DNA of 64,000 nt from an uncultured Gammaproteobacteria bacterium (GTDB taxonomy: Bacteria > Pseudomonadota > Gammaproteobacteria > Methylococcales > Methylomonadaceae): assembly GCA_963814825.1 (NCBI GenBank), contig CAWFEF010000004.1, positions 455,556 to 519,555 of the forward strand. Direction: 5' to 3'. The position numbers and the translations under genes are program-made. How positions within the stretch are numbered: the stretch's first letter is position 1; each line of letters starts with the position of its first letter. Below are positions 31,355 through 53,755 of this stretch, piece after piece. The notes beneath the pieces are model-generated. The model made no database searches. It was not told where the DNA came from and was given only the letters and a program-made list of their open reading frames with translations.

Positions 31355-31392
31355 TTTAAAAAAGCCCGTCTTTATGACGGGCTTTTTTTGCT
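31355..31392 (+). terminator. Rho-independent terminator; an almost identical module recurs at 38495-38532
   Basis: The hairpin AAAAGCCCGTCtttatGACGGGCTTTTTTT is preceded by GTTTAAGTGTTTAAA. Confidence 0.7.
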
Positions 31393-32911: not shown

Positions 32912-32987
32912 TGGAGCTGCCAGTTGGATTCGAACCAACGACCTACCGAGTATTCTCGGTAGCTCTACCTGACTGAGCTATGGCAGC
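32912..32987 (-). tRNA. tRNA-like gene with encoded CCA and an anomalous 6-nt anticodon loop; isotype undetermined
   Basis: The acceptor stem GCTGCCA/TGGCAGC, the D-arm and the T-arm (GTTGG-TTCGAAT-CCAAC) are canonical. The anticodon arm is ACCGA-GAATAC-TCGGT, which may reflect an indel error or a pseudo-tRNA. Confidence 0.4.
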
Positions 32988-33353: not shown

Positions 33354-34578
33354 TTATCCCTTAACACAAACCACCTGTTTCAAGGTATGCACAATCTCAA
33401 CCAAATCCGCCTGCGCTGCCATCACCGCTTCAATAGGCTTGTAGGCGGAAGGCGTTTCGTCGATCACCTCTTCATCCTTACGGCATTCCACGCCTGCCGT
33501 GGCTTGAATATGCTCGGCCAAGGACACCAGCTTTTTCGCTTGGGTGCGCGACATAACCCGCCCTGCGCCGTGGCTGCAACTGCAAAAACTTTCTTCGTTG
33601 CCCAAACCGCGCACAATGAAGGATTTGGCGCCCATGCTGCCGGGAATAATCCCCATTTCACCCAGCTTGGCGCTGACCGCGCCTTTCCGGGTAACCAGCA
33701 CGTTTTTATCGTAATGATGCTCACGGCTGATATAGTTGTGATGACAGTTAACCGCTTCCAGCTCTGCGCTAAACGGTACCGGCAACATGTCCCGTATCGC
33801 GCTTAACACGTTGTTCATCATGATTACCCGGTTGGCAAGCGCAAAATCCTGCGCCCAGCTCACCGCTTCCAGATAGTTTTTAAAATGCTCGCTGCCTTCG
33901 GGAATGTAGGCCAAATCTTTATCGGGCAGATGGATAAACCAGCGTTCCATATCTTTTTTAGCCAGCTCGATAAAGTGCGTCCCGATCCGGTTGCCGACAC
34001 CGCGCGAACCGCTATGCAACATCACCCAAACTGCATCCGCCTCATCCAGGCAAATCTCGATAAAATGATTGCCTGTTCCTAACGTACCCAAATGGTTGAG
34101 GTTGTTGGTGTTTTTCAAGCACGGATGTTTTTGGCATAACCGTTCAAAGCCCTCATTTAACAGCAGCCAAGCCTGCACAACGTCTTCAGGCGGTTGGCCC
34201 CAGCTACCGGTATCGCGCACTTTAAAATTGGCAACGCGGCCATGCGGCACGCGTTTTTCAATCTCGTTGCGTAACGCGGTCAACGAATCGGGCAGTTGCG
34301 CGGCGGTTAAAGCTGGTTTTAGTCGCCATCATGCCGCAGCCCAAATCCACACCCACCGCAGCCGGAATCACCGCGCCGACGGTAGGAATGACGCTGCCGA
34401 TCGTCGCGCCTTTACCCAGATGGACATCGGGCATTACCGCGATCCATTTGTGAATAAACGGCAGCCCGGCGATATTCAGCAATTGTTGCTTGGAGTTTTC
34501 ATCAAAGCTTACGCCGCGTGTCCATGCCTTAACAGGATAGTGACCTTGTTCGTGTAAGACTTCGTAGGAGCTAGTCAT
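33354..34578 (-). CDS. rtcB: RNA-splicing ligase RtcB (408 aa) carrying one frameshift near 34270
   Basis: The motifs GMMATKTSF...HKWIAVMPDVHLGKGATIGSV...HSGSRGVGN...NCHHNY and the metal-binding histidines are present across two frames. Confidence 0.8.
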
Positions 34579-34620
34579 GATTGAGATTCCTTGAGTTTGT
34601 TTACTAACGATTTGTTTAGA

Positions 34621-34635
34621 GCAAGGCCTGTGCCA
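34621..34635 (-). promoter_or_regulatory. Sigma-54 promoter (-24 TGGCAC, N5, -12 TTGC) driving rtcB
   Basis: The plus strand reads GCAAGGCCTGTGCCA, which is TGGCACaggccTTGC on the minus strand, about 45 nt upstream of the rtcB start. It is divergent from the sigma-54 activator gene rtcR. Confidence 0.6.
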
Positions 34636-34723
34636 AATAGCATGTAATCGGCTGCGCCATCTTTAACCATGAGTTCCAAACACCTATCATTTTTAATGGG
34701 AATGCCCCAAAAACGTCATTCCG

Positions 34724-34826
34724 GCAGGGATTGCCGGAATCCAGAAGCCAGGGATGGTAAGGCTCAGATCACCTCCATGTGCCCTAGATACCGGCAGTCC
34801 ATGCCGGTATGACGTGCTATTTAAAC
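34724..34826. repeat. MITE-like element, copy 2 (internally shortened), lying in the rtcB-rtcR intergenic region
   Basis: It has the same terminal inverted repeats and internal blocks as the copy at 8225-8404. Confidence 0.5.
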
Positions 34827-34940
34827 AAAGTAATTACATGCGCTGTTGAACTTAAATTGCTCAGCTAGAGTAGATTTGCATCGCCCAAGAGGCTAAACTC
34901 CAGGTTAACTTTTTATCGATATAGATACCGGATTATCAAA

Positions 34941-36532
34941 ATGGATACAGTCATCATCGGCATTTTAGGATCTCGCCTGGATCACGGCGGTTTGGGTAGC
35001 AGACGGCACGAACGCTGGCGGCCCAGCATCTCGTTATTGATGCACGATAACCTGCCAGTCGATGAGTTTGTGTTGATCCATCATGCCGATGAACAACAAC
35101 TCGCCACCTTGACGCTCAACGATATGGCGGCCATGTCTCCGCAAATACGGCTGACACCTTATCAAGTCGATTATGAAAACCCTTGGGACTTTGAACAGGT
35201 TTATAGCCAGCTGCACGAATTCACCCGCAGCTATCATTTCGATCCCGAACAGCATGATTATTATGTCCACATCACCACCGGCACCCATGTCGCGCAAATC
35301 TGTTTGTATCTGCTGACCGAAGCCAACTACATTCCGGCCAAGTTGCTGCAAACCTCGCCAAGCAAGGAAGGCGTGCAAGGTTGCTATCAAGTCATCGATT
35401 TGGATTTATCGCGCTACGATCAAATCGCCTCGCGCTTTGCCCGTGAAGCCCAAGACGGCATTGCTTATTTAAAAGGCGGCATAACAACGCATAATCCTGC
35501 GTTTAATACATTGATCTCCCAACTGGAGCATGTATCGATCAAATCGTCGGCGCCGATGTTGTTAACAGGCCCGACAGGCGCCGGAAAATCGCGGCTGGCA
35601 AAACGCATTTACGAACTGAAAAAACAGCGCGGCTTGGTGACCGGCAAATTGGTGGAAGTCAATTGCGCGATCTTGCGCGGCGATAACGCGATGTCGGCTT
35701 TATTCGGCCATGTGCGAGGCGCTTATACCGGCGCTTTGACTCAGCGCATGGGCTTATTGCGCGAAGCCGATAAAGGCTTGCTGTTTTTAGATGAAATCGG
35801 CGAATTGGGCCTCGACGAACAAGCCATGCTGCTGCGTGCGATTGAAGATAAAGTGTTTATGCCATTGGGCAGCGATCAGGAAGTCGGCAGCGATTTTCAA
35901 TTGATAGTCGGAACTAACCGCGATTTGTTCGAACAAGTACAACGGGGGTTGTTTCGTGAAGATTTGTTGGCGCGGATTAATTTATGGACCTATCAACTGC
36001 CCTCGCTGAAACAACGCATCGAAGATTTAGAGCCCAATATTGAACACGAGCTGCAACAATTTACGATTAAAGCAGGCTATAAAGTCAGCTTTAACAAAGC
36101 CGCTCGCGAACAGTATTTAAAGTTTGCCCGTTCAGCAACAGGCGCTATGGCGAGCGAATTTCCGGGATTTAAATTCCAGCATTACCCGCATGGCAACCTT
36201 GGCAACGGGCGGGCGCATTACCGAAGAACTGGTGGGCGAAGAAATCAGCCGCTTGCAGTACGCTTGGTCAGGTTTCAGCCAGCAAGCCGGTTGACGATGG
36301 ACTTGCCGCCGTATTGTCGGCGCAAGCCTTGGCGGAGTTGGATTTATTCGACCGTTTGCAACTTGCCGAAGTAGTGCGCGTCTGCCGCGCCAGTCGCAGC
36401 TTGGCCGAGGCGGGACGGGTTTTGTTCAATCATAGCCGCACCCAAAAAGCCAGCGCCAATGACTCGCACCGGCTTAAGCAATATTTACAGAAGTTTGGCT
36501 TGGAGTTTCAGGGGATTGTAAAAAGCTCGTAA
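34941..36532 (+). CDS. rtcR: Sigma-54-dependent transcriptional activator RtcR (CARF-like N-terminus plus AAA+ domain) with a frameshift near 36320
   Basis: The AAA+ sigma-54 activation domain carries TGPTGAGKS and LLFLDEIGELGLDEQAMLLRAIEDKVFMPLGSD. The C-terminal HTH piece lies in the next frame. Confidence 0.8.
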
Positions 36533-38494: not shown

Positions 38495-38532
38495 CGTTTA
38501 AAAAAGGCCCGTCTTTATGATGGGCTTTTTTG
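38495..38532 (+). terminator. Rho-independent terminator, a duplicate of the module at 31355-31392
   Basis: The sequence GTTTAAGCGTTTAAAAAAGGCCCGTCtttatgATGGGCTTTTTTG is present. Confidence 0.65.
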
Positions 38533-38704: not shown

Positions 38705-40066
38705 CTAGGATTTATGATACCCGCTTCGAACGACTAACTTCGCCGGCACTCCACCCTTCGGCTTCAGCGTCACCGCCATTTCAATTTCGGCTTCATCCGT
38801 ATCAAGCAACTGCAAATCAAGATTCTGAATAATCATGCTCAACAAAAGCTGGCTTTCCAGTAACGCGAAATGATTGCCGATACAAATGCGCTCGCCGGTT
38901 CCGAATGGCATGAATGAAAATCTGCGATTCTCATCGCTTAAAAAGCGTTCGGGATCGAACCGTTCAGGCTGCGGCCAAAAATCCGGGTGATGATGAATAT
39001 TGTAAATACTGAAAATCGCCAGTCTACCTTGCTTTAACGAATACCCGTCAATCTCAGTATCCTTGAGAATTTTGCGCATCATAATGCCGACCGGCGGGCG
39101 GAAGCGCATCGATTCATTCAGTACGGCTCTGGTATAGACAAGCTGCTGCAAGTCTTCCGCTGTTGGGACTTTGCCTTGCAGCAAGGTATCCAGTTCTTGA
39201 CGCAGTTTAGCCAATACATCCGGATGCCGGGCCAGTAAATACAGCGTCCAGCTTAACAAATTCGCAGTGGTTTCATGGCCTGCACTGAAAATGGTAGTGA
39301 CTTCATCGCGAATCTGTTTATCGGACATAAGTTCGCCCTTGTCATCGCTTGCGTTCAGCAACATATCCAACAAATCGTTGTGCACTGCTGATTGGGCGCG
39401 GCGTTGCTCGATGATCCCGTAAATGACCTCATCTACTACCGCGCTTGCCGCATTAAATTCCCGATTGGCCTGGGTGGGTATAAATAACGGCATGCGTAAA
39501 GGATTCATGACCGATTTGGCCGCATACCGGAGCAGCGTGTCTAAAGCAGGCGCAATGTGTTCAATTTTATCGAGGACGCTGGTGCTAAACATGGTTTGAG
39601 TGATCACTTCAAGCGTCACCTGCATCATTTCATCAGCGAGATTAACTTGCGCCCCGTCGCCTAATAGCCGCCATCTGGCTAATAAGTTATTGCCGGCAGT
39701 GACGATTTGCGAATGTAAAGACGCCAAATTACTTCGCTGAAAAACCGGCTGCATTAACCGCCGCTGTCGTTGCCATAAATCACCCTGGCTGGTCACTAAG
39801 CCTTGCCCTAACACCAATGCCAGACCGGTTGGTTTTTTAGGATCGTACATTTTGACAAAGATATCGCTTTGCTTGATTAAAGCCTGTTCGATCAGCTTTG
39901 GGTGGCTGATTAAATAAAAATGGCGAATCGCCAATCTGAAACTCGCTAAATCGCCATAATCGCGCTGCCAGTCGCAAAGCGCTTGAAACGGATTGGCTTT
40001 CATTTGGCGTAAATTGCCTAATAGAAATTCGGCTTTGATTTTTGGGATTGTTTTGTTTTGCGGCAT
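38705..40066 (-). CDS. Cytochrome P450 monooxygenase
   Basis: The heme-binding loop FMPFGTGERICIGNHFA, the I-helix AGHETT and the EXXR motif are present in a 453-aa product. Confidence 0.85.
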   Translation of the reverse strand: MPQNKTIPKIKAEFLLGNLRQMKANPFQALCDWQRDYGDLASFRLAIRHFYLISHPKLIEQALIKQSDIFVKMYDPKKPTGLALVLGQGLVTSQGDLWQRQRRLMQPVFQRSNLASLHSQIVTAGNNLLARWRLLGDGAQVNLADEMMQVTLEVITQTMFSTSVLDKIEHIAPALDTLLRYAAKSVMNPLRMPLFIPTQANREFNAASAVVDEVIYGIIEQRRAQSAVHNDLLDMLLNASDDKGELMSDKQIRDEVTTIFSAGHETTANLLSWTLYLLARHPDVLAKLRQELDTLLQGKVPTAEDLQQLVYTRAVLNESMRFRPPVGIMMRKILKDTEIDGYSLKQGRLAIFSIYNIHHHPDFWPQPERFDPERFLSDENRRFSFMPFGTGERICIGNHFALLESQLLLSMIIQNLDLQLLDTDEAEIEMAVTLKPKGGVPAKLVVRSGYHKS

Positions 40067-40117
40067 GGTTGATACGGTTTGAAGTTTTAATGGCTGATTT
40101 TCAAAAAAGTGTTGCGT

Positions 40118-40627
40118 CTATTCTGCGTTTATTTCGACATTAGTAATGACCTCTGCGAGTAAAGCCGGACGAATATGCAAAGTCGTTTGCTTTGGAATGT
40201 CTCGCAACAATGCCAACACCTCGGATTTTGACCGAGATTGCCTGCGTATCGCTCTGATTAACAGACCCAACGTGCCATGCGCAGTGATACTCAGACTTTT
40301 TGCGGCAAGCCGCGCCGCTGTGTCATCGGTCAACAACAAACAATCGCCGTATTCGACACACAAATGCAAGGCTTCTTGCTCACCGGCATGTAATGTATAG
40401 AGCGGCGTCAACGCCTTAACCAATTGGGAAGACTGTCTTGCAGATCGTCGAATAAGCAGTGCATTTTCAGCCATCAATGCTTGTGGGCGATGGTTTTGCA
40501 CCTCAAGCCAAACCGCTTCGGGTACGATTACGCGGCCAAAATCGGCCAAAAGATCAAGACAACCCAGCTCATCCAGATGAATGATAGGCCCCGCATCAGC
40601 AATGACGACCGGGCTAGTCTTGCCCAT
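40118..40627 (-). CDS. PIN-domain toxin (DUF3368-type VapC-like ribonuclease)
   Basis: The blocks VVIADAGPIIHL...CLLLTDD...AHGTLGLLIRAI match the PIN family. The gene overlaps the upstream antitoxin gene by about 14 bp. Confidence 0.65.
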   Translation of the reverse strand: MGKTSPVVIADAGPIIHLDELGCLDLLADFGRVIVPEAVWLEVQNHRPQALMAENALLIRRSARQSSQLVKALTPLYTLHAGEQEALHLCVEYGDCLLLTDDTAARLAAKSLSITAHGTLGLLIRAIRRQSRSKSEVLALLRDIPKQTTLHIRPALLAEVITNVEINAE

Positions 40628-40811
40628 GCAAGCCCCAGTCAACATCATCGAGAATGAAGCGCTCGTTCATCGTTTCAAGGTGGGATTCCAGATAACGGCG
40701 GACGGATTCGGCAATCAATTCATCCATATTGGCAACCCAACCCTGCTGTACCATGTATTGTGCTTGTTGCCAGAGTTGGTCGGGGATTTCTGTTTTTACG
40801 GTGGTGCTCAT
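40614..40811 (-). CDS. Ribbon-helix-helix antitoxin (ParD/CopG-like), 66 aa
   Basis: The sequence MSTTVKTEIPDQLWQQAQYMVQQGWVANMDELIAESVRRYLESHLE resembles ParD, and the gene is coupled to the PIN gene. Confidence 0.55.
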   Translation of the reverse strand: MSTTVKTEIPDQLWQQAQYMVQQGWVANMDELIAESVRRYLESHLETMNERFILDDVDWGLHGQD

Positions 40812-41018
40812 GATTGTTATGCCTCTGATAAGCTGTAACCGAAAATAAGACTGGAAAAATTCGGATTGGGCGTAAGCGAAAGAGCCAATTGTATAATACC
40901 GGAAAATGAAAGCTACCATTTACATGGATTAACAGAATGAACAGGATAAAGGAATATCTGGTTAGTTCCGCATCGTATCGTTGACTGCGTATTTTGCGAT
41001 AAGGTTTCGTGCAGTTTT

Positions 41019-41103
41019 GTAGATCGTGCATGCTGTGTATGTCAGACAGTCAGATAAGCTCATACTGTCAGACAACGAAAAAGCTATTGCCCGACTTGCG
41101 AGC
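41019..41103. repeat. Family-2 double-hairpin repeat, diverged copy 1, upstream of tauE
   Basis: It shares CAGATA.GCT...GTC.GACAACGAAAAAGCT.TTGCCCGA with the copies at 42027-42124 and 42213-42320. Confidence 0.45.
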
Positions 41104-41245
41104 CTTCTATCTCATTGATTAATTAAAGTAATTTATTTTTAGTGGCGGTTATGAAGAATAAAAGATACTGAAATTGGTAAAATCTGCACTTCCGGCTTAC
41201 CGTTGAGCCAAATAAACAGATCAAAATAAGGCAGATTATTCCTCA

Positions 41246-42028
41246 ATGACGTTACTCGATTTTTCTTTTTACCAAATACTCGCTATTGCCTTGATATTCG
41301 TCTGGACCGGCTTTGTCCGGACCGGGCTGGGTTTTGGCGGCGCCGCGTTGGGATTACCGCTGATGTTGTTTATCCATAACAATCCGCTGTTATGGCTGCC
41401 TATCATCGGCGTGCATTTGTTGTTTTTCTCCGGTTTAACATTGCTTAACCGCTTGCATAACGTCGATTGGCAGTATTTGCGCTATTCCGCGATTTACATC
41501 ATTCCCGCCGCCTTCGTAGGCATTTTCGGGCTGCTGAACCTGCCGGTATTATGGCTGAACGGCTTTATCTATTCGGTTACCTTGTTTTACGGTTTTACCT
41601 GGATGCTTAACCGAGGCATTCAAAGTCAACATGTTTGGGCGGATAGAGTGCTGTTGATTTTAGGCGGATACGTTGCCGGAATTTCCTTGACCGGCGCGCC
41701 GTTGATGGTCGCCGTCTATATGCGCAACGTCAGCAAACAAAAGTTGAGGGATACTTTGTTTATCCTGTGGTTCACGTTGGTCAGCATCAAAATGACCACG
41801 TTTGTCGCCCTGTCCGTCGATTTGCATTTTCTAACGGCGCTGGCGCTGTTACCGATTGCCGCGATAGGCCATATAGTCGGCTTGAAAACGCATGACGCGA
41901 TTATGCGCAACGATTTGATGTTTAAACGTTGGATTGGCGGCGGCTTGGTTACTGTGAGTCTGTTGGGGTTGTGGCAGTTGTGTAGCCAATTTGTTCAGGA
42001 TTTTATTAAAAGTACTGGCTTGATTTGA
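41246..42028 (+). CDS. TSUP-family sulfite/anion exporter TauE/SafE
   Basis: The motifs GFGGAALGLPLM and GGYVAGISLTGAPLMVAVYM are present in a product of about eight transmembrane helices. Confidence 0.75.
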   Translation: MTLLDFSFYQILAIALIFVWTGFVRTGLGFGGAALGLPLMLFIHNNPLLWLPIIGVHLLFFSGLTLLNRLHNVDWQYLRYSAIYIIPAAFVGIFGLLNLPVLWLNGFIYSVTLFYGFTWMLNRGIQSQHVWADRVLLILGGYVAGISLTGAPLMVAVYMRNVSKQKLRDTLFILWFTLVSIKMTTFVALSVDLHFLTALALLPIAAIGHIVGLKTHDAIMRNDLMFKRWIGGGLVTVSLLGLWQLCSQFVQDFIKSTGLI

Positions 42029-42124
42029 TAGTTCCGTAGGTCGGGCATGCTGTTTATGCCCGACAATCAGATAGGCTAATAGTGTCGGGCAACGAAAAAG
42101 CTGTTGCCCGGTCTACGCACTACG
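42027..42124. repeat. Family-2 repeat, copy 2: hairpin TCGGGCATgctgtttATGCCCGA followed by hairpin CGGGCAACgaaaaagctGTTGCCCG
   Basis: It is nearly identical to copy 3 over about 90 bp. Confidence 0.55.
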
Positions 42125-42168
42125 TCCGCTGAAGACGTTGTTAAATGCGAATCATTGAATACCTTGCT

Positions 42169-42197
42169 CCTCGTTCCCACGCAGCGCGTGGGAACGA
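42169..42197. repeat. REP-like palindrome, family 6: CTCGTTCCCACGCAGCGCGTGGGAACGAG
   Basis: It is a perfect 12-bp-arm palindrome, and related units lie at 44911-44938 and 45021-45048. Confidence 0.5.
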
Positions 42198-42212
42198 GAT
42201 AAAAAGCGCTGG

Positions 42213-42320
42213 ATTGGTTTGATAGTCCCGTGGGCCGGGCATGCTGTTTATGCCCGACAATCAGATATGCTAATAGTGTCGGGCAACGAAAAAGCTGTTG
42301 CCCTATCTACAAGGCTGCAT
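42213..42320. repeat. Family-2 repeat, copy 3, abutting the 3' end of the NACHT gene
   Basis: Identity to copy 2 was established by direct comparison. Confidence 0.55.
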
Positions 42321-42334
42321 AAGGCAAAACAAAA

Positions 42335-44290
42335 TCACAAGTCCCTGGCAACATGAAAAAAAGGCCCATTTTCATGTAAGAGCTTCTCAGCATTTAATCT
42401 GTCTAGAGAAGAAAGTTCTCTCAAAAGAGCCATATTAAGTCTTTGCGATTTAATTCGAATATTATCGGTTCCATATCTAAATGTTAATCTCGATTCGAGG
42501 CCAGAAGGAATCAGCATTTTTTCGAAAAGAATCCAGTTCGCTTCGTCTTCATTCGAGTAGTCGTCTATGAAGCCAATAAGGGAGGCATACTCTAATTCTG
42601 CATCGTCAGCTAAACGATAATCTATTCCCGTTAAGATCGACAACTGGTTGACACAGTATCTTGCTAAGATATATGGAGAATCTAAAAACTCCAGGTTCTT
42701 AAAATTTTCTGAAGTAAGAGCCTTTTTAAATTGTAATAAACTGGATATTTCTACAATTTTGTCATAAGTAAGCTTATTTTTACTCAGGGCAAAAGGTTTA
42801 CTAAATTGCTCCTTCTGTTCCAAACTTAATTGGGTGAACCGCCTATCTTCATCCTCCAGAAGATCCATCTGTAAATAATCCGACTGAGAATCTATCGGCG
42901 GAATAATCATCATGTCAGGACCTAAGTTGCCGTTCGCCAATTTATCTTGAAAAATGAATTGATCAAGTTTCAACCCTTGCCAGTTAAAACTAAAAAAGAC
43001 TCTCGGAATTAATGAGCTATCGAAACAACGTATAAAACTGATTATTTGAGCTGTAAGTTTAGGTAATGGAAACGGCGAATTATCCAATGGACACAGTTGC
43101 CAGTCAGGTACTAAAGTTTCCATACAAGCAGCATTAGCCACAAAAAATTCCTGAATACTGTAATGGGCAAAACGATAATCCCTGTTGGAGGTTCGATTCA
43201 GCAGCGAACGACCGCCAAAATCCAGGTGTTTCAGGTGAAAGACGGCAGGCAGTTTAGCGATTAATTGTGCTAATTCGCTTTCCGGTAAGGCTCGCTTTCC
43301 TAAAGACTGTAAATATACTGCGACTAGGCGGCAGGCCGCCCAGAGATCACGTTCATTCGGAACCGATTTAATATTCTGACTCTCCATCTTGCGTATCTCC
43401 CGTCGCAACCAGACTTTCACAAGAGCCTCGTAGATTGTATAGCTGTTCCAGCGGGTTTGCTCTGACTCTAGCAAATCTTCCACGTGGGCCAGTAATAAAG
43501 GCCGAAATTGCAATGACTGCATTGAGTGCAACAATTTTTCAGCCTGTTCCCGGCGCGGATCGGCTTTCTTAAACAAAGGAATCCCGGTATCTGGGAAACG
43601 TTTAATGAGATAGGAATGGACTTGACTATTGTCAAATAGCGACAGGAAGATCATTGGACAGGTGTAGGCACCAACTACGACTCGTCCGGGTCGACCAAAG
43701 GAGTCTAGGCCAGTATCGGGAAAGAACTGGGTACGGCAGGATATAAGCACATGGCGGAAATTTGTGCTGGCCTCCAGTATTTCCTGTAACCGATCAGCTA
43801 TGCGACCACGGGCCAACGGGTCTTCGTCAAGGGCATCCAGGAGCAATACTGTTTTGGCTTTATTTGGTTGTGTACTTATTCGTTCCAAGGTGTTTTCGCT
43901 AAGTTTGAGCAGCAGACAATCGTAATCTTTCGGCCAAAATGACAGCATTTGGCTTAATTTGAGCATCATTAAGAGAGAGGTTTTACCCATACCAGCATCT
44001 GCCAATACGAACATCTGGTTGCGACCGTCACGTTCGACTGTATCACGTTCTAAAAAATGGTTGATTGTTTTGAATATCCCTGACCTTACGAAGGAGCAGA
44101 TACTATCTTCGTCATAATCCGTAGGGTTGTGTTGTTGACAGTCAGGTTGAATATAGTATTGGGCGAGTGTTCGTGGGTCACCAAATGTGTCGGTTATTAC
44201 GTCGAATTCCTTATCTCGTGTTTCCCAAATTTTGGTCAACTTCTTGTAAAGTGGTTTAATCAGTTTGGTAGATATGAATGGCTCGGACAT
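42335..44290 (-). CDS. NACHT/STAND-type P-loop NTPase (651 aa) with a short N-terminal region and an unassigned 250-aa C-terminal region; candidate bNACHT/Avs-like defense protein
   Basis: Walker A VLADAGMGKTSLLMML and the NACHT-type Walker B KTVLLLDALDE are present. The gene is markedly AT-rich (about 38-40 % GC) compared with neighbours at about 55 %. It is flanked by repeat families 2 and 6 and by toxin-antitoxin modules. Confidence 0.65.
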   Translation of the reverse strand: MSEPFISTKLIKPLYKKLTKIWETRDKEFDVITDTFGDPRTLAQYYIQPDCQQHNPTDYDEDSICSFVRSGIFKTINHFLERDTVERDGRNQMFVLADAGMGKTSLLMMLKLSQMLSFWPKDYDCLLLKLSENTLERISTQPNKAKTVLLLDALDEDPLARGRIADRLQEILEASTNFRHVLISCRTQFFPDTGLDSFGRPGRVVVGAYTCPMIFLSLFDNSQVHSYLIKRFPDTGIPLFKKADPRREQAEKLLHSMQSLQFRPLLLAHVEDLLESEQTRWNSYTIYEALVKVWLRREIRKMESQNIKSVPNERDLWAACRLVAVYLQSLGKRALPESELAQLIAKLPAVFHLKHLDFGGRSLLNRTSNRDYRFAHYSIQEFFVANAACMETLVPDWQLCPLDNSPFPLPKLTAQIISFIRCFDSSLIPRVFFSFNWQGLKLDQFIFQDKLANGNLGPDMMIIPPIDSQSDYLQMDLLEDEDRRFTQLSLEQKEQFSKPFALSKNKLTYDKIVEISSLLQFKKALTSENFKNLEFLDSPYILARYCVNQLSILTGIDYRLADDAELEYASLIGFIDDYSNEDEANWILFEKMLIPSGLESRLTFRYGTDNIRIKSQRLNMALLRELSSLDRLNAEKLLHENGPFFHVARDL

Positions 44291-44656
44291 GGTTTTACCG
44301 TCACATTGTTTTTGGTATTTGAAAAAATAAAGACTGTAGAGCTTAGGATGATTCGCCGTTGGGTAACTGCTCGCCTACGGCAGGCTGTCATTTAAATGCG
44401 ATGATTAGTAAATTGTAACGCTGTTAGGCGGATTTGCGCTAGCCTCGTAGGGTGCGCACCGTGCACCACTTACGGATTTTAGAATCTCAACGACCTCGAG
44501 AAAAGCGCGCGATGCATTCCCTATGTAGCTTGTCTCGTATGAAAAAGGCAACATATACTATGGTTTAAGCGGTTTTTTCTTTAGACTTAATCACTCTCGT
44601 TAAATTTTAGCCTTGATAATACTTCCATGAATCCTTCTAACGTTACTACTGAATAC

Positions 44657-44860
44657 ATGAAGTTATCTGTTTCCGAACGCATCCAGCTCGTTGAGGACAT
44701 ATGGGACAGTATTGCCGCAGAGGCACCTGATGATGCTCTTGGCTTGTCTCAAGCTCAAAAGGCTGAGCTGCATCGTCGTGTTGCTGAGCACCAATCCGAT
44801 TCTTCCTCAGCAGTTCCGTGGGAACAAGTTCGAGCTAAGTTGTTTTCCGATCAAAGCTAA
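44657..44860 (+). CDS. Orphan antitoxin of the putative-addiction-module-component family (RelE/ParE partner type)
   Basis: The sequence MKLSVSERIQLVEDIWDSIA...LSQAQKAELHRRVAEH matches the family. No toxin gene follows; REP units occupy that position. Confidence 0.5.
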   Translation: MKLSVSERIQLVEDIWDSIAAEAPDDALGLSQAQKAELHRRVAEHQSDSSSAVPWEQVRAKLFSDQS

Positions 44861-44904
44861 TGCAGGTTGTTCTCCGTCCAGAGGCAGAGCAAGAGCTTCT
44901 GGAG

Positions 44905-45050
44905 GCTTGCCTCGTTCCCACGCGCTGCGTGGGAATGCAGTCAAGGCGAGCTGCGCCGCAAGTCCCTGTAAACGCCGAAATACAGAGAACCTCAACGTAG
45001 GACGCAGCGCGTCCCATATCGCATTCCCACGCAGCGCGTGGGAACGAGGC
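44905..45050. repeat. Cluster of family-6 palindromic units: two inverted GTTCCCACGC-GCGTGGGAA(C/T)G units plus GGACGCAGCGCGTCC
   Basis: The units lie at 44911-44938, 45001-45015 and 45021-45048, and the second unit is the reverse complement of the first. Confidence 0.5.
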
Positions 45051-45105
45051 AATGGACATGCTCTACTGCGTATTGTTTAGAGATTCCTTACACAAGGATA
45101 ATCAG

Positions 45106-45300
45106 ATGCGAATTGATATAATCATTGACGACACCTTAATGGCCGATGTTTTAAAAGCGACAGGCGCAAAATCCAAGCGCGAAGCGGTAGAACTCGGTTT
45201 AAAAGCCTTATTGATGTTAAAGCAGCAAGAGGGCATCAAAGCCTTTAAAGGCAAGTTAAAATGGGAGGGGGATCTGGAGCAAATGAGGACTGATCGGTGA
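45106..45300 (+). CDS. vapB: VapB-type antitoxin (64 aa)
   Basis: The sequence reads MRIDIIIDDTLMADVLKATGAKSKREAVELGLKALL. An AAGGA ribosome-binding site precedes the gene and its stop overlaps the vapC GTG start. Confidence 0.7.
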   Translation: MRIDIIIDDTLMADVLKATGAKSKREAVELGLKALLMLKQQEGIKAFKGKLKWEGDLEQMRTDR

Positions 45301-45686
45301 TTCTGGTCGATTCCAGTGTTTGGATCGATTATTTCAACGGCACAGAAACACTGGCAACCAAAAAATTGGATAATCTGCTGGGCGTGCAGCCGTTATGTAC
45401 TGGGGATTTGATTCTGGCGGAAGTGCTGCAAGGATTCAGATTAGACCAGGATTACCAAGCCGCAAAAAGCCTGCTTTGCTCCTTGCCAGTCCACGCTATG
45501 TTAGGCGTAACCCTCAGTTTGAAAAGCGCCGAAAATTTCAGGCAGTTGCGTAAACAAGGCATTACGATCCGAAAAACCATCGATACGATGATTGCTACAT
45601 TCTGCATTGAAAACGAATTGTCGCTATTGCATTCAGACAAGGATTTTCAGCCCTTTCAACAGTTTTTGGGTTTGCAGGTTATATAG
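45297..45686 (+). CDS. vapC: VapC PIN-domain ribonuclease toxin
   Basis: The acidic residues of MILVDSSVWIDYF...GDLILAEVLQG...IDTMIATFCIENELSLLHSDKDF fit the PIN signature. Confidence 0.8.
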   Translation: MILVDSSVWIDYFNGTETLATKKLDNLLGVQPLCTGDLILAEVLQGFRLDQDYQAAKSLLCSLPVHAMLGVTLSLKSAENFRQLRKQGITIRKTIDTMIATFCIENELSLLHSDKDFQPFQQFLGLQVI

Positions 45687-45754
45687 AGCTTTCCTTTAGC
45701 TCTTATCATTTATTGGGGTACAATCAGAAAACATAGCTAGGCGAAACATCATCA

Positions 45755-45955
45755 ATGGAGATCATTATGAGCAGTCCTAAAACGGAAGTGGCATCTATGC
45801 TGGAGGCACTTGCCGATGACGTAGACTTTGAAGATATTCAGTATCATTTATATGTCCTCGAAAAAGTTAATCGTGGTCTTGAAAGGGCTGAGACTGAAGG
45901 CGCAGTACCGCATGAAGAAGTTAAGAAGCGTCTGAATAAATGGCTTGTCGGTTAG
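45755..45955 (+). CDS. Antitoxin (RelB/ParD-like) paired with the downstream ParE/RelE toxin
   Basis: The 66-aa acidic product reads ...DIQYHLYVLEKVNRGLERAETEGAVPHEEVKKRL, and the gene overlaps the toxin gene by 16 bp. Confidence 0.5.
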   Translation: MEIIMSSPKTEVASMLEALADDVDFEDIQYHLYVLEKVNRGLERAETEGAVPHEEVKKRLNKWLVG

Positions 45956-46254
45956 AGTGGTCGCCGGAAGCCATTGAAGACATCGAGTCCATCGCGTCTT
46001 ACATCGAACGGGACTCTCCGTGGTTTGCGCAAATCGTTGCGTCAAAAATTGTCAGCACCGCTGAGTCTATACCGTTAAATCCTGAAATGGGCCGGGTGGT
46101 TCCAGAAATCGGCCGTAAAAACATTCGAGAGCGGTTTGTTTATAGCTACCGGATTATTTATCAAATTGATCCGGAACGGGCATTGATAGTAGCTGTCATT
46201 CATGGCAGCCGACTGTTGCAACCGGTCATTCAGAGAGTTGAGGGGAATACTTGA
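45940..46254 (+). CDS. ParE/RelE-family toxin
   Basis: The sequence LEWSPEAIEDIESIASYIERDSP...RIIYQIDPERALIVAVIHGSR matches the family. Confidence 0.7.
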   Translation: MACRLEWSPEAIEDIESIASYIERDSPWFAQIVASKIVSTAESIPLNPEMGRVVPEIGRKNIRERFVYSYRIIYQIDPERALIVAVIHGSRLLQPVIQRVEGNT

Positions 46255-46516
46255 GAATCTAATTCTGTGTTCACGGGAATAGCTTTGGTACCGTTAAGTT
46301 AAGCCGTTCGTGGTGAGCCCTGTCGAACCTGAGCGACTTAACGACTTGTTCCGCTCCCCTTCGACAAGCTCAGGCCGAACGGAACAAATCTTAACTTAAT
46401 GGCATTGCGGTAACCTGTACGTGTCTTTCGGCTTAATCCTTCGCAATACTGCCATTTTCCTGCATAATCCCCCCTGTCTCACTGTTAAAACATCAACAAT
46501 AAAAAGAAGCTGACTG

Positions 46517-48586
46517 ATGAATAATTTACTGAAAAACTCCATCTGGGTACTGATTGCCGCGCTCGGTGCGGCAGCCGTCGGCGGTATTGCTTTAAACCGC
46601 GGCGAGCATATCAACACGTTGTGGTTTATAACCGCTGCTTTGTGCGTCTACGCGATTGCTTACCGATTTTATGCGGCTTGGATTGCCGCCACGGTGTTGA
46701 CGGTTGATGAAACGCGGGCGACACCGGCCGAGCGTTTGGATAACGGCCGCGATTTTGTGCCGACTAATAAATGGATTGTGTTCGGCCATCATTTTGCGGC
46801 GATTGCCGGGCCGGGGCCGTTGGTCGGGCCGACGCTGGCCGCGCAGTTCGGCTATTTGCCCGGAACGCTGTGGATTTTGTTCGGCGCGGTGCTGGGCGGT
46901 TGCGTGCAGGATATGGTGACGCTGTTTTTGTCGACCCGGCGCGACGCGAAAAGTTTGGGGCAGATGGCACGTGACGAGCTCGGCGCATTGGGCGGCACGG
47001 CGGCGCTGATCGGCACGTTCGCGATCATGATCATCCTGATTGCGGTGCTGGGTTTGGTGGTGGTTAACGCGATGAAGCACAGCCCGTGGGCGACGGCTAC
47101 GGTGTCGGCGACGATTCCGATTGCGATGATCGTCGGCTTGTACATGCGCAGTTTCCGTCCCGGCCAAGTGTTGGAGGCTTCGGCGTTGGGCGTGATTTTG
47201 TTGTTGCTGGCCGTGATGGGCGGCGGCTGGATCGATCACAATGAAACTTTGCGCACTTGGTTCGATCATGAAGGTTTGACGCTGGCTTGGTGGGTGATGG
47301 CTTACGGTTTCGCGGCTGCGATTTTACCGGTTTGGTTGTTGCTGGCGCCGCGTGATTACCTGTCGACTTATGTAAAGCTGGGCACGATCACGTTGCTGGC
47401 GGTGGCGATTATCATGCTGCAACCGACCGTGAAAATGCCCGCATTGACGCAGTTCATCGACGGCACCGGGCCTATTTTCGGCGGCAAGCTGTTCCCGTTT
47501 GTGTTTATTACCATCGCTTGCGGCGCGATTTCCGGTTTTCATTCGCTGATCGCTTCCGGCACCACGCCGAAATTGCTCAGCAATGAACGCGATATTCGCA
47601 TGATCGGTTACGGCGGCATGTTGCTGGAATCTTTTGTCGCGATAATGGCGATGATGGCCGCGACTGTGCTCGATCCGGGCGTATTTTTTGCGATCAACAG
47701 CCCTGCGGGCGTGGTCGGCAAGGAAGCTGTCGATGCGGTTGCCAAAATTTCTTCGTGGGGCTTTCCGGTTACCGTGGATCAGATGCAGCTTTTAGCCAGT
47801 CAAATGGGCGAGGCGACGCTGTTTGCCAGAACCGGCGGCGCGCCGTCTTTGGCTGTCGGCATGGCGAGTATTTTCGGCAGTGCATTCGGCGAGAGCATGT
47901 TGGCGTTGTGGTATCACTTTGCGATTATGTTCGAGGCTATCTTTATATTGACCACATTGGACGCCGGAACTCGTGTAGGCCGATTCATGTTGCAGGATAT
48001 GCTCGGCAATATCTGGCCGAAACTGGGCGAAACGTCGTGGACGCCGTCGGTCGTTTTGACCAGCGGATTGGTCGTGGCAGGCTGGGGCTATTTTCTGTAT
48101 ATCGGCGTGATCGACCCGAACGGCGGGGTCAATATTTTGTGGCCGTTATTCGGTATCGCTAATCAAATGTTGGCCGCGATTGCGCTGTGCGTGGCGACCG
48201 GTATTTTGGTTAAATCCGATAAGCTCAAATATGCCTGGGTAACGGGTTTACCGCTGGCTTGGCTGGTGACGATTACCAGCGCTGCGGCATGGGAAAAAAT
48301 AACCAGCGACAATATACGGATCGGTTTCTTTGCTGCGGCCAATGATCTGGCCGACAAGCTGGCGGCAGGCGCGCTGCCGCCGGAAAAAGCGGCGGTTGCG
48401 CCGCAGTTAATCTTCAACCAGCATCTGGACGGTTGGCTGACTTTATTCTTCGTGGCTTTATTGTGGCTGATCGTGTTCGACATGCTGCGCGTTTGCAGCC
48501 GTTATCTGGCCGGAAAGCCGGTGCTGCCGCTGGCAGAATCGCCGCATAGTCCGAGCCGTTTGGTTGAAGATTGGGTGAGGGATTGA
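46517..48586 (+). CDS. cstA: Carbon starvation protein A (peptide/pyruvate transporter)
   Basis: The 689-aa product reads HFAAIAGPGPLVGPTLAAQFGYLPGTLWILFGAVLGG and is conserved throughout. Confidence 0.85.
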   Translation: MNNLLKNSIWVLIAALGAAAVGGIALNRGEHINTLWFITAALCVYAIAYRFYAAWIAATVLTVDETRATPAERLDNGRDFVPTNKWIVFGHHFAAIAGPGPLVGPTLAAQFGYLPGTLWILFGAVLGGCVQDMVTLFLSTRRDAKSLGQMARDELGALGGTAALIGTFAIMIILIAVLGLVVVNAMKHSPWATATVSATIPIAMIVGLYMRSFRPGQVLEASALGVILLLLAVMGGGWIDHNETLRTWFDHEGLTLAWWVMAYGFAAAILPVWLLLAPRDYLSTYVKLGTITLLAVAIIMLQPTVKMPALTQFIDGTGPIFGGKLFPFVFITIACGAISGFHSLIASGTTPKLLSNERDIRMIGYGGMLLESFVAIMAMMAATVLDPGVFFAINSPAGVVGKEAVDAVAKISSWGFPVTVDQMQLLASQMGEATLFARTGGAPSLAVGMASIFGSAFGESMLALWYHFAIMFEAIFILTTLDAGTRVGRFMLQDMLGNIWPKLGETSWTPSVVLTSGLVVAGWGYFLYIGVIDPNGGVNILWPLFGIANQMLAAIALCVATGILVKSDKLKYAWVTGLPLAWLVTITSAAAWEKITSDNIRIGFFAAANDLADKLAAGALPPEKAAVAPQLIFNQHLDGWLTLFFVALLWLIVFDMLRVCSRYLAGKPVLPLAESPHSPSRLVEDWVRD

Positions 48587-48765
48587 TGTTTAGCAAACTC
48601 AAAACTTTCTGGCAAATGGTGCGTCGTCTTTCCGGGGATGATGCTTATGAACGTTATTTGCAGCACTATGCAGAGCATCATCAAGACGATACGCCGTTAA
48701 GCAAAGAGGCTTTTTTCAAACGGTGGCAGGATGAAAAGTGGAATGGGATTAAGAGGTGTTGTTAG
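48586..48765 (+). CDS. YbdD/YjiX-family small protein (DUF466), the CstA partner
   Basis: The sequence is MFSKLKTFWQMVRRLSGDDAYERYLQHYAEHHQDDTPLSKEAFFKRWQDEKW. Its start overlaps the cstA stop, as in known cstA-ybdD pairs. Confidence 0.7.
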   Translation: MFSKLKTFWQMVRRLSGDDAYERYLQHYAEHHQDDTPLSKEAFFKRWQDEKWNGIKRCC

Positions 48766-48779
48766 CCTTCAGCCATAAA

Positions 48780-48857
48780 GTAGGGCGTGCTGTGCGCGCC
48801 TTTTTCAGGCTTTGTATAACATACCCCTGCCTCTTTGGCGCGCACGGCACGCCCTAC
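48780..48857. repeat. REP-like palindrome, family 1, copy B
   Basis: The arms GTAGGGCGTGCTGTGCGCGCC ... GGCGCGCACGGCACGCCCTAC differ from copy A by one left-arm change (C to T), which still allows a G-U pair in RNA. Confidence 0.6.
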
Positions 48858-49153
48858 GTTGCTATTCTCATCAGATCATGACGCTACTTAACGGAGAACG
48901 CAAAGAAATACAACTTCGTGTTCTTGGCAACTGCTCCATGCGTTGCTCTACCTCCTACATCCATGTAGTCGTTCGTGTCTTGCTGGTAAATAAAAGCACT
49001 TGCCAACATTCTGCATTGTAAGAGGCTTCAACTAGCCTATTACATGAACACACTTTATAATATGCGGCAGATAGCATTGGGCGGCTATTTTTCCGCAACC
49101 GCAATGGCTTTCAGCTTAACCCTCAACCTAATAGATTGAAACAGGAACCCTTA

Positions 49154-50285: not shown

Positions 50286-50436
50286 CTGGCAATCGGCAGG
50301 CTGTATGGAGTAAATTAATGATAACCTTGGCTAACACGAGCTATTAGACGAGTTGTGCTATTATGCTTGAATATTAAGTTGGATAATTTAGCCGGAAATT
50401 AAGATTTATGTTTTCATCAATACTGAACGTTTTTAA

Positions 50437-53400
50437 ATGCTTATGAATGAATTGAATGAACTCCCCAGTTCGCCGGCGAAATATATTGTCGGTATCGGCG
50501 CTTCGGCAGGGGGATTAGAGGCCCTGGAATCGTTTTTTAAGAAAATGTCGCCAAATTCCGGGTTGGCTTTTGTCGTAGTGCAGCATCTGTCGCCGGATTA
50601 TAAAAGCCTGATGGTGGAATTGTTGTCCAAACACACTGAAATGCCGGTCAATCGTATTGAAGACGGTGTGTTGGTCAAAGAAAACAATATTTATCTGCTG
50701 CCTCCGCGCAAAAATCTCAGTTCATTTCATGGCCGCTTGTTATTAACAGACCAGGATCATTCCGAAGGCCGGCTCAATTTACCGATCGATATATTTTTCC
50801 GTTCGCTGGCCGAAGATATGGGCGAATATGCGATCAGTATCGTATTGTCCGGTACCGGTAGCGACGGAACGCGTGGTATCCGTGCGATTAAAGAACGCGG
50901 CGGCATGGTCATGGTGCAGGATGACGAAACGGCCAAGTTTGACGGTATGCCTAAAAATGCGATTGCGACCGGGCTGGCGGATTTTATCTTGTCGCCTGAA
51001 GAAATGCCCAAGCAATTGCTGTCTTTTGTTAAGCATCCGTATGCGTCTGCGCCCGAAACTTCGATGTTGCCAGGCGATGATAATGATTTAACGCGCATTT
51101 TTTTGATGTTGCGTGAAAGAAGCAAGGTTGATTTTACTTATTACAAGCCGACGACGATATTGCGCCGTATTGAACGCCGGGTCACTATCAATCAATTAAA
51201 CGATTTAAGCGAATACGTGCGTTATTTGCAGAATAATCCGAACGAAGTGGCCACCTTATTTCAGGAGCTGTTGATCGGTGTCACCTGTTTCTTTCGCGAT
51301 GAATTAGCGTTTGATGAATTGCGCGATAAATGGCTGGCCAATATTATCGAGCATTTACAGGATGATGAAATCAGGGTTTGGATAGCCGCCTGTTCAACCG
51401 GGGAAGAAGCCTATTCGCTAGCCATGTTGCTGTCGGAATACCGGGAGCAGACTGGTGAATATTTCAGGATCAAAATTTTTGCTACCGACGTCGATCATAA
51501 GGCCGTCGAAAAAGCCAGCAACGGTATTTATCCAGCCAGCATTGCTGCGGACGTGCCGCCCGACTTGCTAAGCAAGTATTTTATACGCCGCGAAGATAAT
51601 TACCAGATTACCCAAAAAATTCGCGAAATGGTGGTGTTTGCACAGCACAATCTGATCAAGGACCCGCCGTTTACCAATATCAACTTGTTAAGTTGCCGTA
51701 ATGTGTTGATTTATATGCAACCGGTGTTGCAACGTAAGATTTTCGAATTATTCAATTTCTCATTGGCAAAAGAAGGCATTTTAATGCTGGGCACCAGCGA
51801 ATCTATCGGCGATATGGTCGATTACTTCGAGCTGGTAAGCCCTAAATGGAAGATCCACCGTTCCAAAGGTAAAAATATTTCAGGCGTCAGCTTGAGCAAC
51901 TCAGACGCCGGCCCGTTTATAAAAGGCCCTTTTAATACGCAGTTACCTCAACACAGCAATCGCGCCAATCTGGCTTATTATGCAGACGATCGGGTACTTG
52001 ACCGTTTTGTCCGCAGTCTGGCCGATGATTTGCTGCCGTTTACGCTGATTGTTAACGAAAAAATGGAGCTGACCCATGTGTTTGGCGATTCCAAGGATTA
52101 TCTGGCCTATCCCAGCGGTAAGCTGGTGCAGGATGTCACTAAGATTGTTATAAAAGATTTGTCTATTCCTGTTGCTACCGGGATTAAACGAGCCTTGAGC
52201 GGTAACGACGATATTGTTTTAACTAACATTCGTATTCGTGAAGCTCAGGATGTGCGCTCTTTGAATTTGCGCTTTAAAACTTTGCCCGGTAAAAAAGGCC
52301 AGGAGCCGTTGTTAGCTATTTTTATCAGCGAAACCGTCAAAAAAGATGTTTTAAGTGCGTCAGAGTCGATGACATTCGACGTTAATCAGGAAGCTGAGCA
52401 ACGTATTAACGACCTGGATCATGAACTGCAATTCACCCGAGAAAACCTGCAAGCCGCGGTTGAAGAGCTGGAAACATCCAATGAGGAATTGCAGGCAACC
52501 AATGAAGAATTGCTTGCCAGTAATGAAGAGCTGCAAAGTACCAATGAGGAATTGCAATCGGTTAATGAAGAGCTGTATACCGTCAATGCTGAATATCAGG
52601 GCAAAATTACCGAGTTAACCTTGCTCAATAATGACTTGGACAACCTGTTCAACAGCACTCAAATCGCTACGCTGTTTTTGGATGAAAACCTGGATATTCG
52701 CCGCTTCACGCCGATATTACAATCCATCTTTCATATCATGGAGCATGATGTAGGCCGCCCCTATAGCCATTTGTCGCACCGTATCGTTGATATTAATTTA
52801 GGTGAGCTGATTAATTCGGTGGTGCTCAGTCATAAAACCATTGTCAAGGACGTGCAAACGGCGGCAGGGAACTGGTATTTGCTGCGGATTACGCCGTATG
52901 CCATTTCGGATAATATGTACGCCGGCGTTATTTTGACCTTTATCGATATTGACCAGCTCAAGAAAACGCAGCTTGAATTACAACAGCGCGGTCAGGAAGA
53001 AACGCAACGTTTGGCAACGATGGTGCGCTATTCGCATGACGCGATCAGCTTGCAAACGATGGATGGGCAAATCCTGACCTGGAATCGCGGCGCTGAAGAG
53101 CTCTATGGCTGGAGCGAACCGGAAGCGTTGCAGATGAATTTTATGGCCTTCATCGCTGAGAACGAATTGGCCAATGATCGGCAAATTCGTGAAAACCTGA
53201 GAAACGGTATGCCGGTTCAAGGATTTGAAGCCAGCCGTATTGCCAAAGACGGCAGCGTTTTTAACGTTTGGGTAACGGTTTCAGTGCTATATGCCGAAGA
53301 CCATAATCGCGAATTGATCGCTTTTACCGAAAGAGATATCCGTGCCAGACAAATAGTGGAAGATAACGATTGTGTGTCGTGTATGCACCGTTTGACGACG

Positions 53401-53730
53401 ATTGTGATGGATATACAAGACGCCATTATTTTATTGGATCCTCAAGGCAATATTATGGCCTGGAATCAGAGTGCGGAAAAACTGTACGGCTGGCAAGAGC
53501 ATGAAGTGATCAATACCAATATTATTGATCTGGTTTCAGAGCAGGAGCAGGCGCTGACTCGCGATAGAATCGAGGCTCTGGTTAACGGCGAGACCATGCA
53601 GCATAGTTTAAAAGTGCGGCGCTTAACCAAAGATGGACGTGAAATTACGGTAAATTTTTCCGCTTCAGCGTTAAATAATCATAACGGCGAAGTGTTGTTG
53701 ATCATTATTACTGAAAGTCATTTGATATAA
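50437..53730 (+). CDS. Chemotaxis-type signalling fusion of CheB methylesterase, CheR methyltransferase, a coiled-coil and two PAS domains (1097 aa)
   Basis: The CheB catalytic region ([10 protein letters not shown]...[12 protein letters not shown]), the CheR SAM-MTase ([18 protein letters not shown]...LSCRNVLIY), the NEELQ heptad repeats and the PAS motifs (...[14 protein letters not shown]..., ...[14 protein letters not shown]...) follow one another in order. Confidence 0.8.
52462..52600 (+). repeat. In-frame 21-bp periodic repeat encoding (S/T)NEELQx heptads, a coiled-coil
   Basis: Five to six tandem copies of A(A/C)CAATGA(A/G)GAATTGCA(A/G)xxx encode [42 protein letters not shown]. Confidence 0.6.
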
Positions 53731-53755
53731 GTTCAGTCATGCTATAGGTGAGTCG

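Follow-up and report, generated by a model that had tools for sequence, protein, structure and literature searches.

An interval between a cytochrome P450 gene and cstA-ybdD of Methylobacter is probably one allele of a hypervariable defence and toxin-antitoxin hotspot

A dense group of small toxin-antitoxin (TA) genes on the chromosome of a methanotroph raises the question whether these genes form one mobile island or are the local content of a site that varies between genomes. The group lies in a stretch of 64,000 nucleotides (nt), here called the window, on contig CAWFEF010000004.1 (positions 455,556 to 519,555, forward strand) of assembly GCA_963814825.1, which comes from an uncultured member of Methylomonadaceae. 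In a sequence-only reading, positions 40118-46254 were described as a horizontally assembled defence and addiction island with a P450 among its cargo. The interval 40090-46443 is, with a probability of about 0.8, this genome's allele of a chromosomal hypervariable defence/TA hotspot situated between the P450 gene and cstA-ybdD. Loci of this kind are already known; what is new is the setting, a methanotroph. The organism is a Methylobacter, with Fba 97% identical to that of Methylobacter sp. Wu8 and 95% identical to that of strain G7. The interval and its anchors are:

38705-40066, minus strand: cytochrome P450, conserved left anchor (PF00067, 2e-100)
40090-46443, no strand: variable interval (hotspot allele); homology with relatives is lost at 40089 and regained at 46434-46487
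46517-48586 (cstA) and 48571-48765 (ybdD-like gene), plus strand: conserved right anchor

The comparison set consisted of about 20 related Methylobacter contigs from metagenomes and metagenome-assembled genomes (MAGs), with loci designated by L and a number. The order of segment 22025-25551, ilvIH-ilvC (27737-31389), P450 (38714-40089), variable interval, and cstA-ybdD (46444-48768) is kept in the relatives, and the conserved blocks have 78-94% nt identity to them. P450 has 80-93% amino acid (aa) identity in relatives sharing the ilv and/or cstA flanks, and it is thus a conserved anchor instead of island cargo. CstA is 95-98% aa identical in L090, L092, L097, L110, L112, L113, L116-118, L120, L146, and L165, and in L169 cstA is located inside a 91%-identical DNA block. 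P450 and CstA stand in the same relative order among the flank-sharing relatives. At the left edge, DNA homology with the relatives ends at 40089-40107. The interval is 6.35 kb long in the window and from 2401 to 8369 bp in the 13 loci with both anchors, none of which (0/13) is an empty site. The same gene order across the family was not seen, as both interval length and content differ among the Methylobacter contigs. A scan of the genome collection with CstA revealed no species representative with synteny beyond cstA-ybdD.

The content of the slot is highly variable, with 187 open reading frames (ORFs) from 19 loci falling into 114 protein clusters. In a Pfam census of the cluster representatives, PIN was matched five times, AAA_16 four times, and NACHT three times, and Unstab_antitox, AAA_15/21-DUF3696, GmrSD_N, and HD-CE had one or two matches each. 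Recognised anti-phage systems recur in the intervals of the relatives. PADLOC identified Avs2 in L106 (E = 0, full length), bSEFIR in L101 (6e-46), Helicase + DUF2290 in L099 (E = 0 and 3e-99), and PDC-S60 in L105. A TIR/SEFIR-STAND-TPR protein, an AAA_16-TPR pair, HD-CE, and GmrSD with a DUF3696 ATPase were recognised there by Pfam.

Three relatives reveal how single modules come and go. L169 (Methylobacter MAG GCA_004322395.1) has the same backbone as the window, namely P450, TauE, NACHT, an orphan antitoxin, a REPIN-like element, and cstA. The TA pair at the left edge of the window (module 1) is replaced there by an Unstab antitoxin and a 90-aa ParE-like toxin, and a MazE-PIN pair is in place of VapBC (module 2) and the partner-ParE pair (module 3). 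Furthermore, 1.7 kb of extra DNA with flavodoxin and alanine-zipper genes is inserted exactly at the REP-like element at 44440, and there is one copy of the D1 repeat versus the arrangement D1b-REP-D1c in the window. In L146, VapBC adjoins the cstA upstream region, and exactly ~45705-46445 (partner, ParE, and hairpin) is missing. Only the two ends of the NACHT gene remain in L110. Conserved anchors, a variable interval, clean presence or absence of modules, anti-phage systems in the slot of relatives, and a REPIN-truncated toxin gene are all observed at this site.

Three intact type II TA pairs had been claimed within about 6 kb, and three such pairs are indeed found at the following positions:

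40118-40627 (or to 40648), minus strand: PIN toxin of module 1, COG2405/DUF3368 type (PADLOC PDC-S70, 3e-25)
40614-40811, minus strand: putative module 1 antitoxin of 65 aa, probably ribbon-helix-helix (RHH), upstream of the PIN gene with a 14-nt overlap
45106-45300, plus strand: VapB antitoxin of module 2 (PF09957, 2.3e-9, 37.4 bits versus a cut-off of 23.4)
45297-45686, plus strand: VapC PIN toxin of module 2 (NF047959, 6.2e-48; PF01850, 40.3 bits)
45767-45955, plus strand: 62-aa partner of ParE (module 3), from a Pfam-less, all-helical family; antitoxin by position only
45940-46254, plus strand: ParE/RelE-superfamily toxin of module 3 (PF05016, 4.2e-20, profile positions 1-88 of 89)
46296-46390, no strand: long imperfect hairpin at the right end of module 3 (folding free energy dG -20.9, z-score -4.4)

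The PDC-S70 match of the module 1 PIN toxin spans positions 3-157 of 161. In Pfam, DUF3368 (PF11848) reaches 16.6 bits (cut-off 27.3) and PIN_4 17.2 bits, both sub-threshold. The pair had been read as a ParD-like RHH antitoxin with a DUF3368 PIN toxin. The pair itself is present, but the ParD-like nature of the partner is unestablished, and its sole family match is RHH_8 at a sub-threshold E = 0.014. No match to UPF0175 and no relative by PDB sequence search was obtained for the partner; antitoxins of the UPF0175 family have been reported only alongside COG2405/DUF3368 toxins (PMC5499597). The pair recurs on Methylomonas plasmid pUP202 at 73-76% identity and with the same 14-nt overlap, the PIN toxin being 75.7% identical and the partner, annotated there as an RHH protein, 73% identical. 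A role of the partner as an RHH antitoxin is therefore plausible. The start codon of P450 and the stop of the PIN gene are only 51 bp apart (40066-40118 in the window), and the D1 copy usual upstream of P450 is displaced. P450 may now be co-transcribed with the module 1 pair, because all three genes are on the minus strand. Scans for promoters and terminators were no better than chance.

The VapB-VapC pair with its classic GTGA overlap of 4 nt was correctly recognised from the letters alone, and both proteins have family matches. VapC reaches 162 bits with NF047959 (cut-off 80) over all profile positions (1-125/125). The Pfam match of VapB begins at residue 19 of a longer ORF, whose start falls inside the REPIN-like element. 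The pair is 94-95% identical in L099 and L146, and the order VapB-VapC-62aa-ParE is found also on an independent contig of 1364 bp.

Module 3 had been described as a RelB-like antitoxin with a ParE/RelE toxin, of which the toxin stands and the RelB-like label does not. ParE has 72.6 bits with PF05016 (cut-off 23) and 21 bits, below cut-off, with TIGR02385 RelE_StbE. The gene of its 62-aa partner overlaps the toxin gene by 16 nt. The partner belongs to a family of 629 homologues, mostly of 62 aa, with no Pfam domain and with an invariant EDIQYHLYVLEK motif. In its AlphaFold2 model (mean confidence, pLDDT, 82) there are three helices and no N-terminal strand as in RHH proteins. No Pfam or NCBIfam match and no PDB relative by sequence, profile, or Foldseek fold search was found for it, and neither the RHH nor the Phd fold of ParD, RelB, or Phd antitoxins was recognised. 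The hairpin at 46296-46390 falls within the segment missing from L146. As in the VapBC, ParDE/RelBE, and COG2405 PIN families (Matelska et al. 2017, PMC5499597), a small upstream gene overlaps each toxin gene by 4-16 nt, and the toxins have full-length matches; unlike in those families, the ParE partner in the window is in no described antitoxin family. This widespread Pfam-less partner is a small item that can be tested.

An orphan RelE/ParE-type antitoxin with palindromic units in its toxin slot had also been claimed, and this part of the locus holds well:

44627-44860, plus strand: orphan antitoxin, Unstab_antitox (2.3e-19) / TIGR02574 (1.4e-25)
44860-44907, plus strand: remnant of the cognate ParE-like toxin, start codon and first 16 codons, MQVVLRPEAEQELLEA
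44907-45052, no strand: REPIN-like element of 146 nt, two inverted 32-nt REP arms, 100% complementary, 82 nt apart

The orphan antitoxin is 84-86% identical to antitoxins in L101, L106, and L107. In L101 the antitoxin, 84% identical to that in the window, is followed by a ParE-like toxin of 98 aa (ParE_toxin, E = 0.0027). When this toxin was used in tblastn, the remnant in the window was recovered with 63% identity over 27 aa (E = 2e-5). The start codon of the remnant overlaps the stop of the orphan antitoxin, and the REPIN-like hairpin (dG -58 kcal/mol, z-score -11.6) starts directly after codon 16. Since the toxin start and 16 codons persist and are then followed by the REPIN-like element, the palindrome-filled slot is, judged from sequence, a ParE-like toxin gene truncated by this element, with the antitoxin surviving. 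The state of orphan antitoxin and REPIN is in common with L169. The locus clearly exemplifies how a REPIN-like insertion can disable a toxin gene and leave its antitoxin in place.

REP and REPIN elements were reportedly described by Bertels and Rainey in 2011. The element in the window is like REPINs, as two inverted palindromic units of ~30 nt form a long hairpin and copies exist at other positions (in L090, L110, and L169). Unlike in REPINs, the element replaces the body of a toxin gene, and no RAYT (Y1 transposase) is present in the 64 kb window. A Y1_Tnp gene is present in Methylobacter G7 (L082).

The largest gene of the backbone inside the interval encodes a NACHT protein:

42335-44290, minus strand: NACHT-fold STAND NTPase of 651 aa with a short N-terminal region and a degenerate, fast-evolving FGE-sulfatase-like C-terminal domain

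The protein has Walker A (GMGKTS) and Walker B (LLLDALDED) motifs. Its sequence matches are weak (nSTAND3, NPHP3_N, and EruA NACHT, with Pfam NACHT and nSTAND3 sub-threshold), but the designation as a NACHT gene is right at the fold level. The structural model has pLDDT 80-95 over the NTPase core, and by Foldseek it is matched to NOD2, NLRC4, and NLRP3 at E = 4.5e-11 and probability 1.00 over ~450 aligned columns; a NACHT-type arrangement of nucleotide-binding, helical, and winged-helix domains is thus present together with both Walker motifs. Homologues with 38-51% identity have a C-terminal FGE-sulfatase domain (PF03781) or pentapeptide repeats, and the C-terminal domain of the window protein diverged past detection by the Pfam model PF03781. 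Among close relatives, the NTPase region is 84-89% identical versus 33-45% in the C-terminal region. Such fast C-terminal divergence is the pattern expected of a sensor domain, and it would fit a sensor here. A Methylobacter MAG encodes a counterpart with 93% identity to the NACHT protein, and no close relatives on plasmids were found. No effector domain was detected by family searches in residues 1-90, and PADLOC gave no match, so that the protein was not placed among Avs or bNACHT systems. FGE-sulfatase-like sensors on prokaryotic STANDs were already described (PMC13581612). The protein is similar to bacterial NLR-like STANDs (PMC13581612; Kaur et al. 2020, PMC7159879) in its NACHT fold, in its homologues with FGE-sulfatase or pentapeptide C-termini, and in the faster evolution of the C-terminus. 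It is unlike them in having no recognisable N-terminal effector, no PF03781 match, and no PADLOC model, and its role in defence is only predicted. Being a NACHT NTPase without a recognised effector and with an FGE-like tail that diverges rapidly, it is likewise a small item open to testing.

The exporter and the repeats around it are:

40988-41099, plus strand: D1 repeat copy a, degenerate; homology with L169 resumes within this copy, at 41057
41246-42028, plus strand: TauE/SafE-family permease (PF01925, 4.3e-14), a semi-resident gene of the interval
42005-42116, plus strand: D1 repeat copy b, overlapping the TauE stop codon; two hairpins, z-score -4.5
42169-42201, no strand: single REP-type palindrome CCTCGTTCCCACGCAGCGCGTGGGAACGAG (dG -16.7, z-score -5.2)
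42199-42310, plus strand: D1 repeat copy c, just 3' of the NACHT gene
44440-44480, no strand: REP-like element GTAGGGTGCGCACCGTGCACC at a module junction, the insertion point in L169

TauE is 77-93% identical in L112, L113, L116-118, and L166, and in L169 it was called within an 87%-identical DNA block; its position varies among the loci of relatives that carry it. D1 is a 112-nt repeat family (copies at 40988, 42005, and 42199) with a unit of ~75 nt and four alternating CGGGCA octamers. As its copies lie on both sides of TauE, the claim of a repeat-bracketed exporter proved right, and at least three repeat families were confirmed by repeat and hairpin scans. The REP palindrome at 42169-42201 sits in a 194-bp duplication absent from L169. 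In most relatives a D1 copy is found 30-110 nt upstream of the P450 start codon, and in the window the module 1 TA pair is placed between P450 and D1a. In ~2.3 Mb of fetched sequence, D1 occurs only around the P450 gene and within the hotspot. Covariation in three alternative D1 hairpins was no higher than in shuffles. It is quite improbable that D1 is a locus-specific recombination site at cassette boundaries; if it were, the slot would be a cassette-exchange system that is integrase-independent or uses an unknown recombinase. Alternatively, D1 could be an operator or promoter of P450, or a small miniature inverted-repeat transposable element.

In composition, the interval has a G+C content of 45.1% versus 48.3% for the window and the largest tetranucleotide distance among windows of the same size, mainly due to the NACHT gene. 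That gene (42.1% G+C, 99th percentile) is the sole compositional outlier in the interval, and the impression of a G+C content fluctuating sharply across the region was therefore overstated. Outside the interval, cstA (46517-48586) is compositionally atypical with 56.3% G+C, and an identity of 82-85% between its protein and CstA from the betaproteobacterial methylotrophs Methylotenera and Methylovorus is suggestive of an old exchange among methylotrophs. No unassigned ORF of at least 120 aa that could encode an integrase or transposase is left in the window interval, and none was found among 20 larger proteins sampled from the relatives. Flanking direct repeats of att type, a recombinase, and a border tRNA were likewise not found at the interval; a search of Rfam gave two tRNAs only.

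The following mechanism can be proposed for the hotspot. The slot is filled by small self-contained modules: besides TauE and the NACHT NTPase, it contains here three type II TA pairs, each of ~0.7-1.0 kb, and a fourth pair that has decayed. Modules are gained, swapped, and deleted singly, with breakpoints at short hairpin repeats (D1 and REP/REPIN), and the turnover may proceed after DNA uptake by homologous recombination in the conserved flanks and repeats, without a dedicated integrase. Any DNA that arrives in the slot would then be stabilised by the TA pairs, which may in addition abort phage infection. From what is known of the families, RNase activity would be expected of the PIN toxins (VapC and COG2405 type), and the ParE-type toxin would poison gyrase or translation; a labile antitoxin from the gene directly upstream would restrain each of them. 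The NACHT NTPase would act as a ligand-triggered switch with the fast-evolving C-terminal domain as its sensor.

Accessory content, a G+C content below the surroundings, and one TA pair (module 1) with a plasmid-borne relative would also fit a single integrative mobile island inserted as one unit at 40118-46254. No integrase, recombinase, transposase, flanking att-type repeat, or border tRNA accompanies the interval, and relatives differ module by module rather than as occupied versus empty, with no empty site in the 13 loci with both anchors. A unit island is thus very improbable and was rejected; the locus is accessory and horizontally assembled, as had been claimed, but it is not one island. 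The lack of any integrase or att site in the searches, together with variation by single modules, speaks for a hotspot and not for an element. The hairpin repeats at module junctions, including those bracketing TauE, and the confinement of D1 to this locus and its surroundings recall an integron-like cassette array without integrase (CALIN type), in which D1 and REP hairpins would serve as attC-like sites. This reading is extremely improbable: there is no intI gene in the window, the attC cores GTTRRRY/RYYYAAC are missing from D1 and REP when read directly from the sequence, genes are in both orientations, the ancestral position of D1 is the P450 upstream region, and its hairpins do not covary. 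It was rejected on the grounds of motif and orientation.

It is unlikely, too, that the cluster is ancestral and native and that lineages differ by differential loss only, with no horizontal input, even though L169 has the backbone order in common, deletion remnants are seen in L110 and in the window, and TA genes are native-like in composition. The 114 protein clusters across 19 loci speak against it, as do the mutually exclusive large systems (Avs2, bSEFIR, Helicase-DUF2290, HD-CE, and GmrSD) in one slot, which would demand an implausibly large ancestor. Different TA families also occupy the same edge slot in L169 and the window, and the module 1 pair is located on a plasmid of another genus.

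The hotspot reading has its own points against it. All comparison loci were found through P450 (79 loci from a metagenome scan), which introduces an ascertainment bias. The relatives are ~10% diverged in the flanks, thus other species or populations and not strains, and because of this divergence rates and directions of events cannot be read. In a second lineage the far anchor is phosphoketolase-acetate kinase instead of cstA. The ORF clusters come from mechanical calling, and some of the small clusters probably do not represent genes. PADLOC recognised no defence system in the window, only a match to the hidden Markov model of the candidate family PDC-S70. As the G+C content and tetranucleotide usage of the TA genes are native-like, a recent foreign origin of these genes is not shown. 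The recombination mechanism is inferred only from the positions of junctions, and toxicity, neutralisation, and anti-phage effect of the modules are predicted.

The closest known systems are the core defence hotspots cDHS1 and cDHS2 of Pseudomonas aeruginosa (Johnson et al. 2023, PMC10250203), of which cDHS2 has a median size of 6 kb, comparable to 2.4-8.4 kb in the Methylobacter slot. As there, a slot between core genes carries varied arrangements of many immune and unknown genes, and it is occupied in 13 of 13 both-anchor contigs here. The Methylobacter slot differs in its methanotroph host, in being known from ~20 metagenome and MAG contigs versus hundreds of genomes, and in a window allele that is dominated by TA genes and has no validated system. 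In the Escherichia coli pan-genome, defence islands are carried on mobile elements at integration hotspots (Hochhauser et al. 2023, PMC10121019). The likeness lies in clustered defence and TA genes whose content varies between genomes at one fixed position; unlike those islands, the Methylobacter slot has no hallmark of a prophage, integrative and conjugative element, transposon, or integrase, and its modules turn over individually.

Several features were observed elsewhere in the window and the genus. A segment of ~7.1 kb between ilvC and P450 (31340-38535) with an SPFH gene, two tRNA-like genes, rtcB, rtcR, and a DUF4010/MgtC gene is absent in L112, L113, and L165, so the ilvC-P450 spacer is a second variable spot. 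At both ends of the segment, the ilvC terminator hairpin recurs as a 34-nt direct repeat (31355-31388 and 38498-38531). Within it, at 33354-36532, one frameshift interrupts rtcB and two interrupt its sigma-54 regulator rtcR. The long genes nearby are uninterrupted, which makes decaying pseudogenes more probable than a general assembly error. Two abutting tRNA genes are located just downstream of rtcB (32838-32987, minus strand). One is tRNA-Thr(UGU), and the other, an unusual tRNA-like gene, has an anticodon arm one nucleotide short (ACCGAG-AATA-CTCGGT), a 4-base 'anticodon' in ARAGORN, and 56.6 bits with the Rfam tRNA model. An H+-pyrophosphatase gene (25554-27602, minus strand, PF03030, 53.7% G+C, 98th percentile of tetranucleotide distance) is absent from all relatives, where the distance from the DUF2797 gene to ilvI is ~50-230 bp.

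To the right of the hotspot, there is a synteny breakpoint at 48768-49029, as relatives with P450 and cstA-ybdD do not run on into fba. The fba of relatives is preceded by uvrD, and synteny with the Wu8, G7, and JGI contigs is found only from ~49029, just upstream of fba. A REPIN-like hairpin (48777-48860, z-score -7.5) is located at the break, with a sister copy at 24577-24657. CheB/CheR-PAS and PAS-GGDEF-EAL genes (50300-56317) are inserted between fba and a methyltransferase-HAD-SDR cluster, which are adjacent in the Methylobacter Wu8, G7, and JGI contigs. In Methylobacter sp. Wu8 (L081, 594-9643), a branched-chain amino-acid ABC transporter cluster between uvrD and fba is interleaved with four small TA-like pairs, namely DUF4160/DUF2442, Unstab_antitox with a 72-aa gene, HicAB, and a 92-aa gene with PIN_3. 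This region looks like another TA-rich variable slot in the genus.

None of the small items found here, that is the 62-aa partner, the NACHT NTPase, and the REPIN-disabled toxin, alters current concepts. The value of the locus lies in P450 and cstA as a marker pair for harvesting defence and TA cargo from Methylobacter genomes and metagenomes, as for the core defence hotspots of Pseudomonas.

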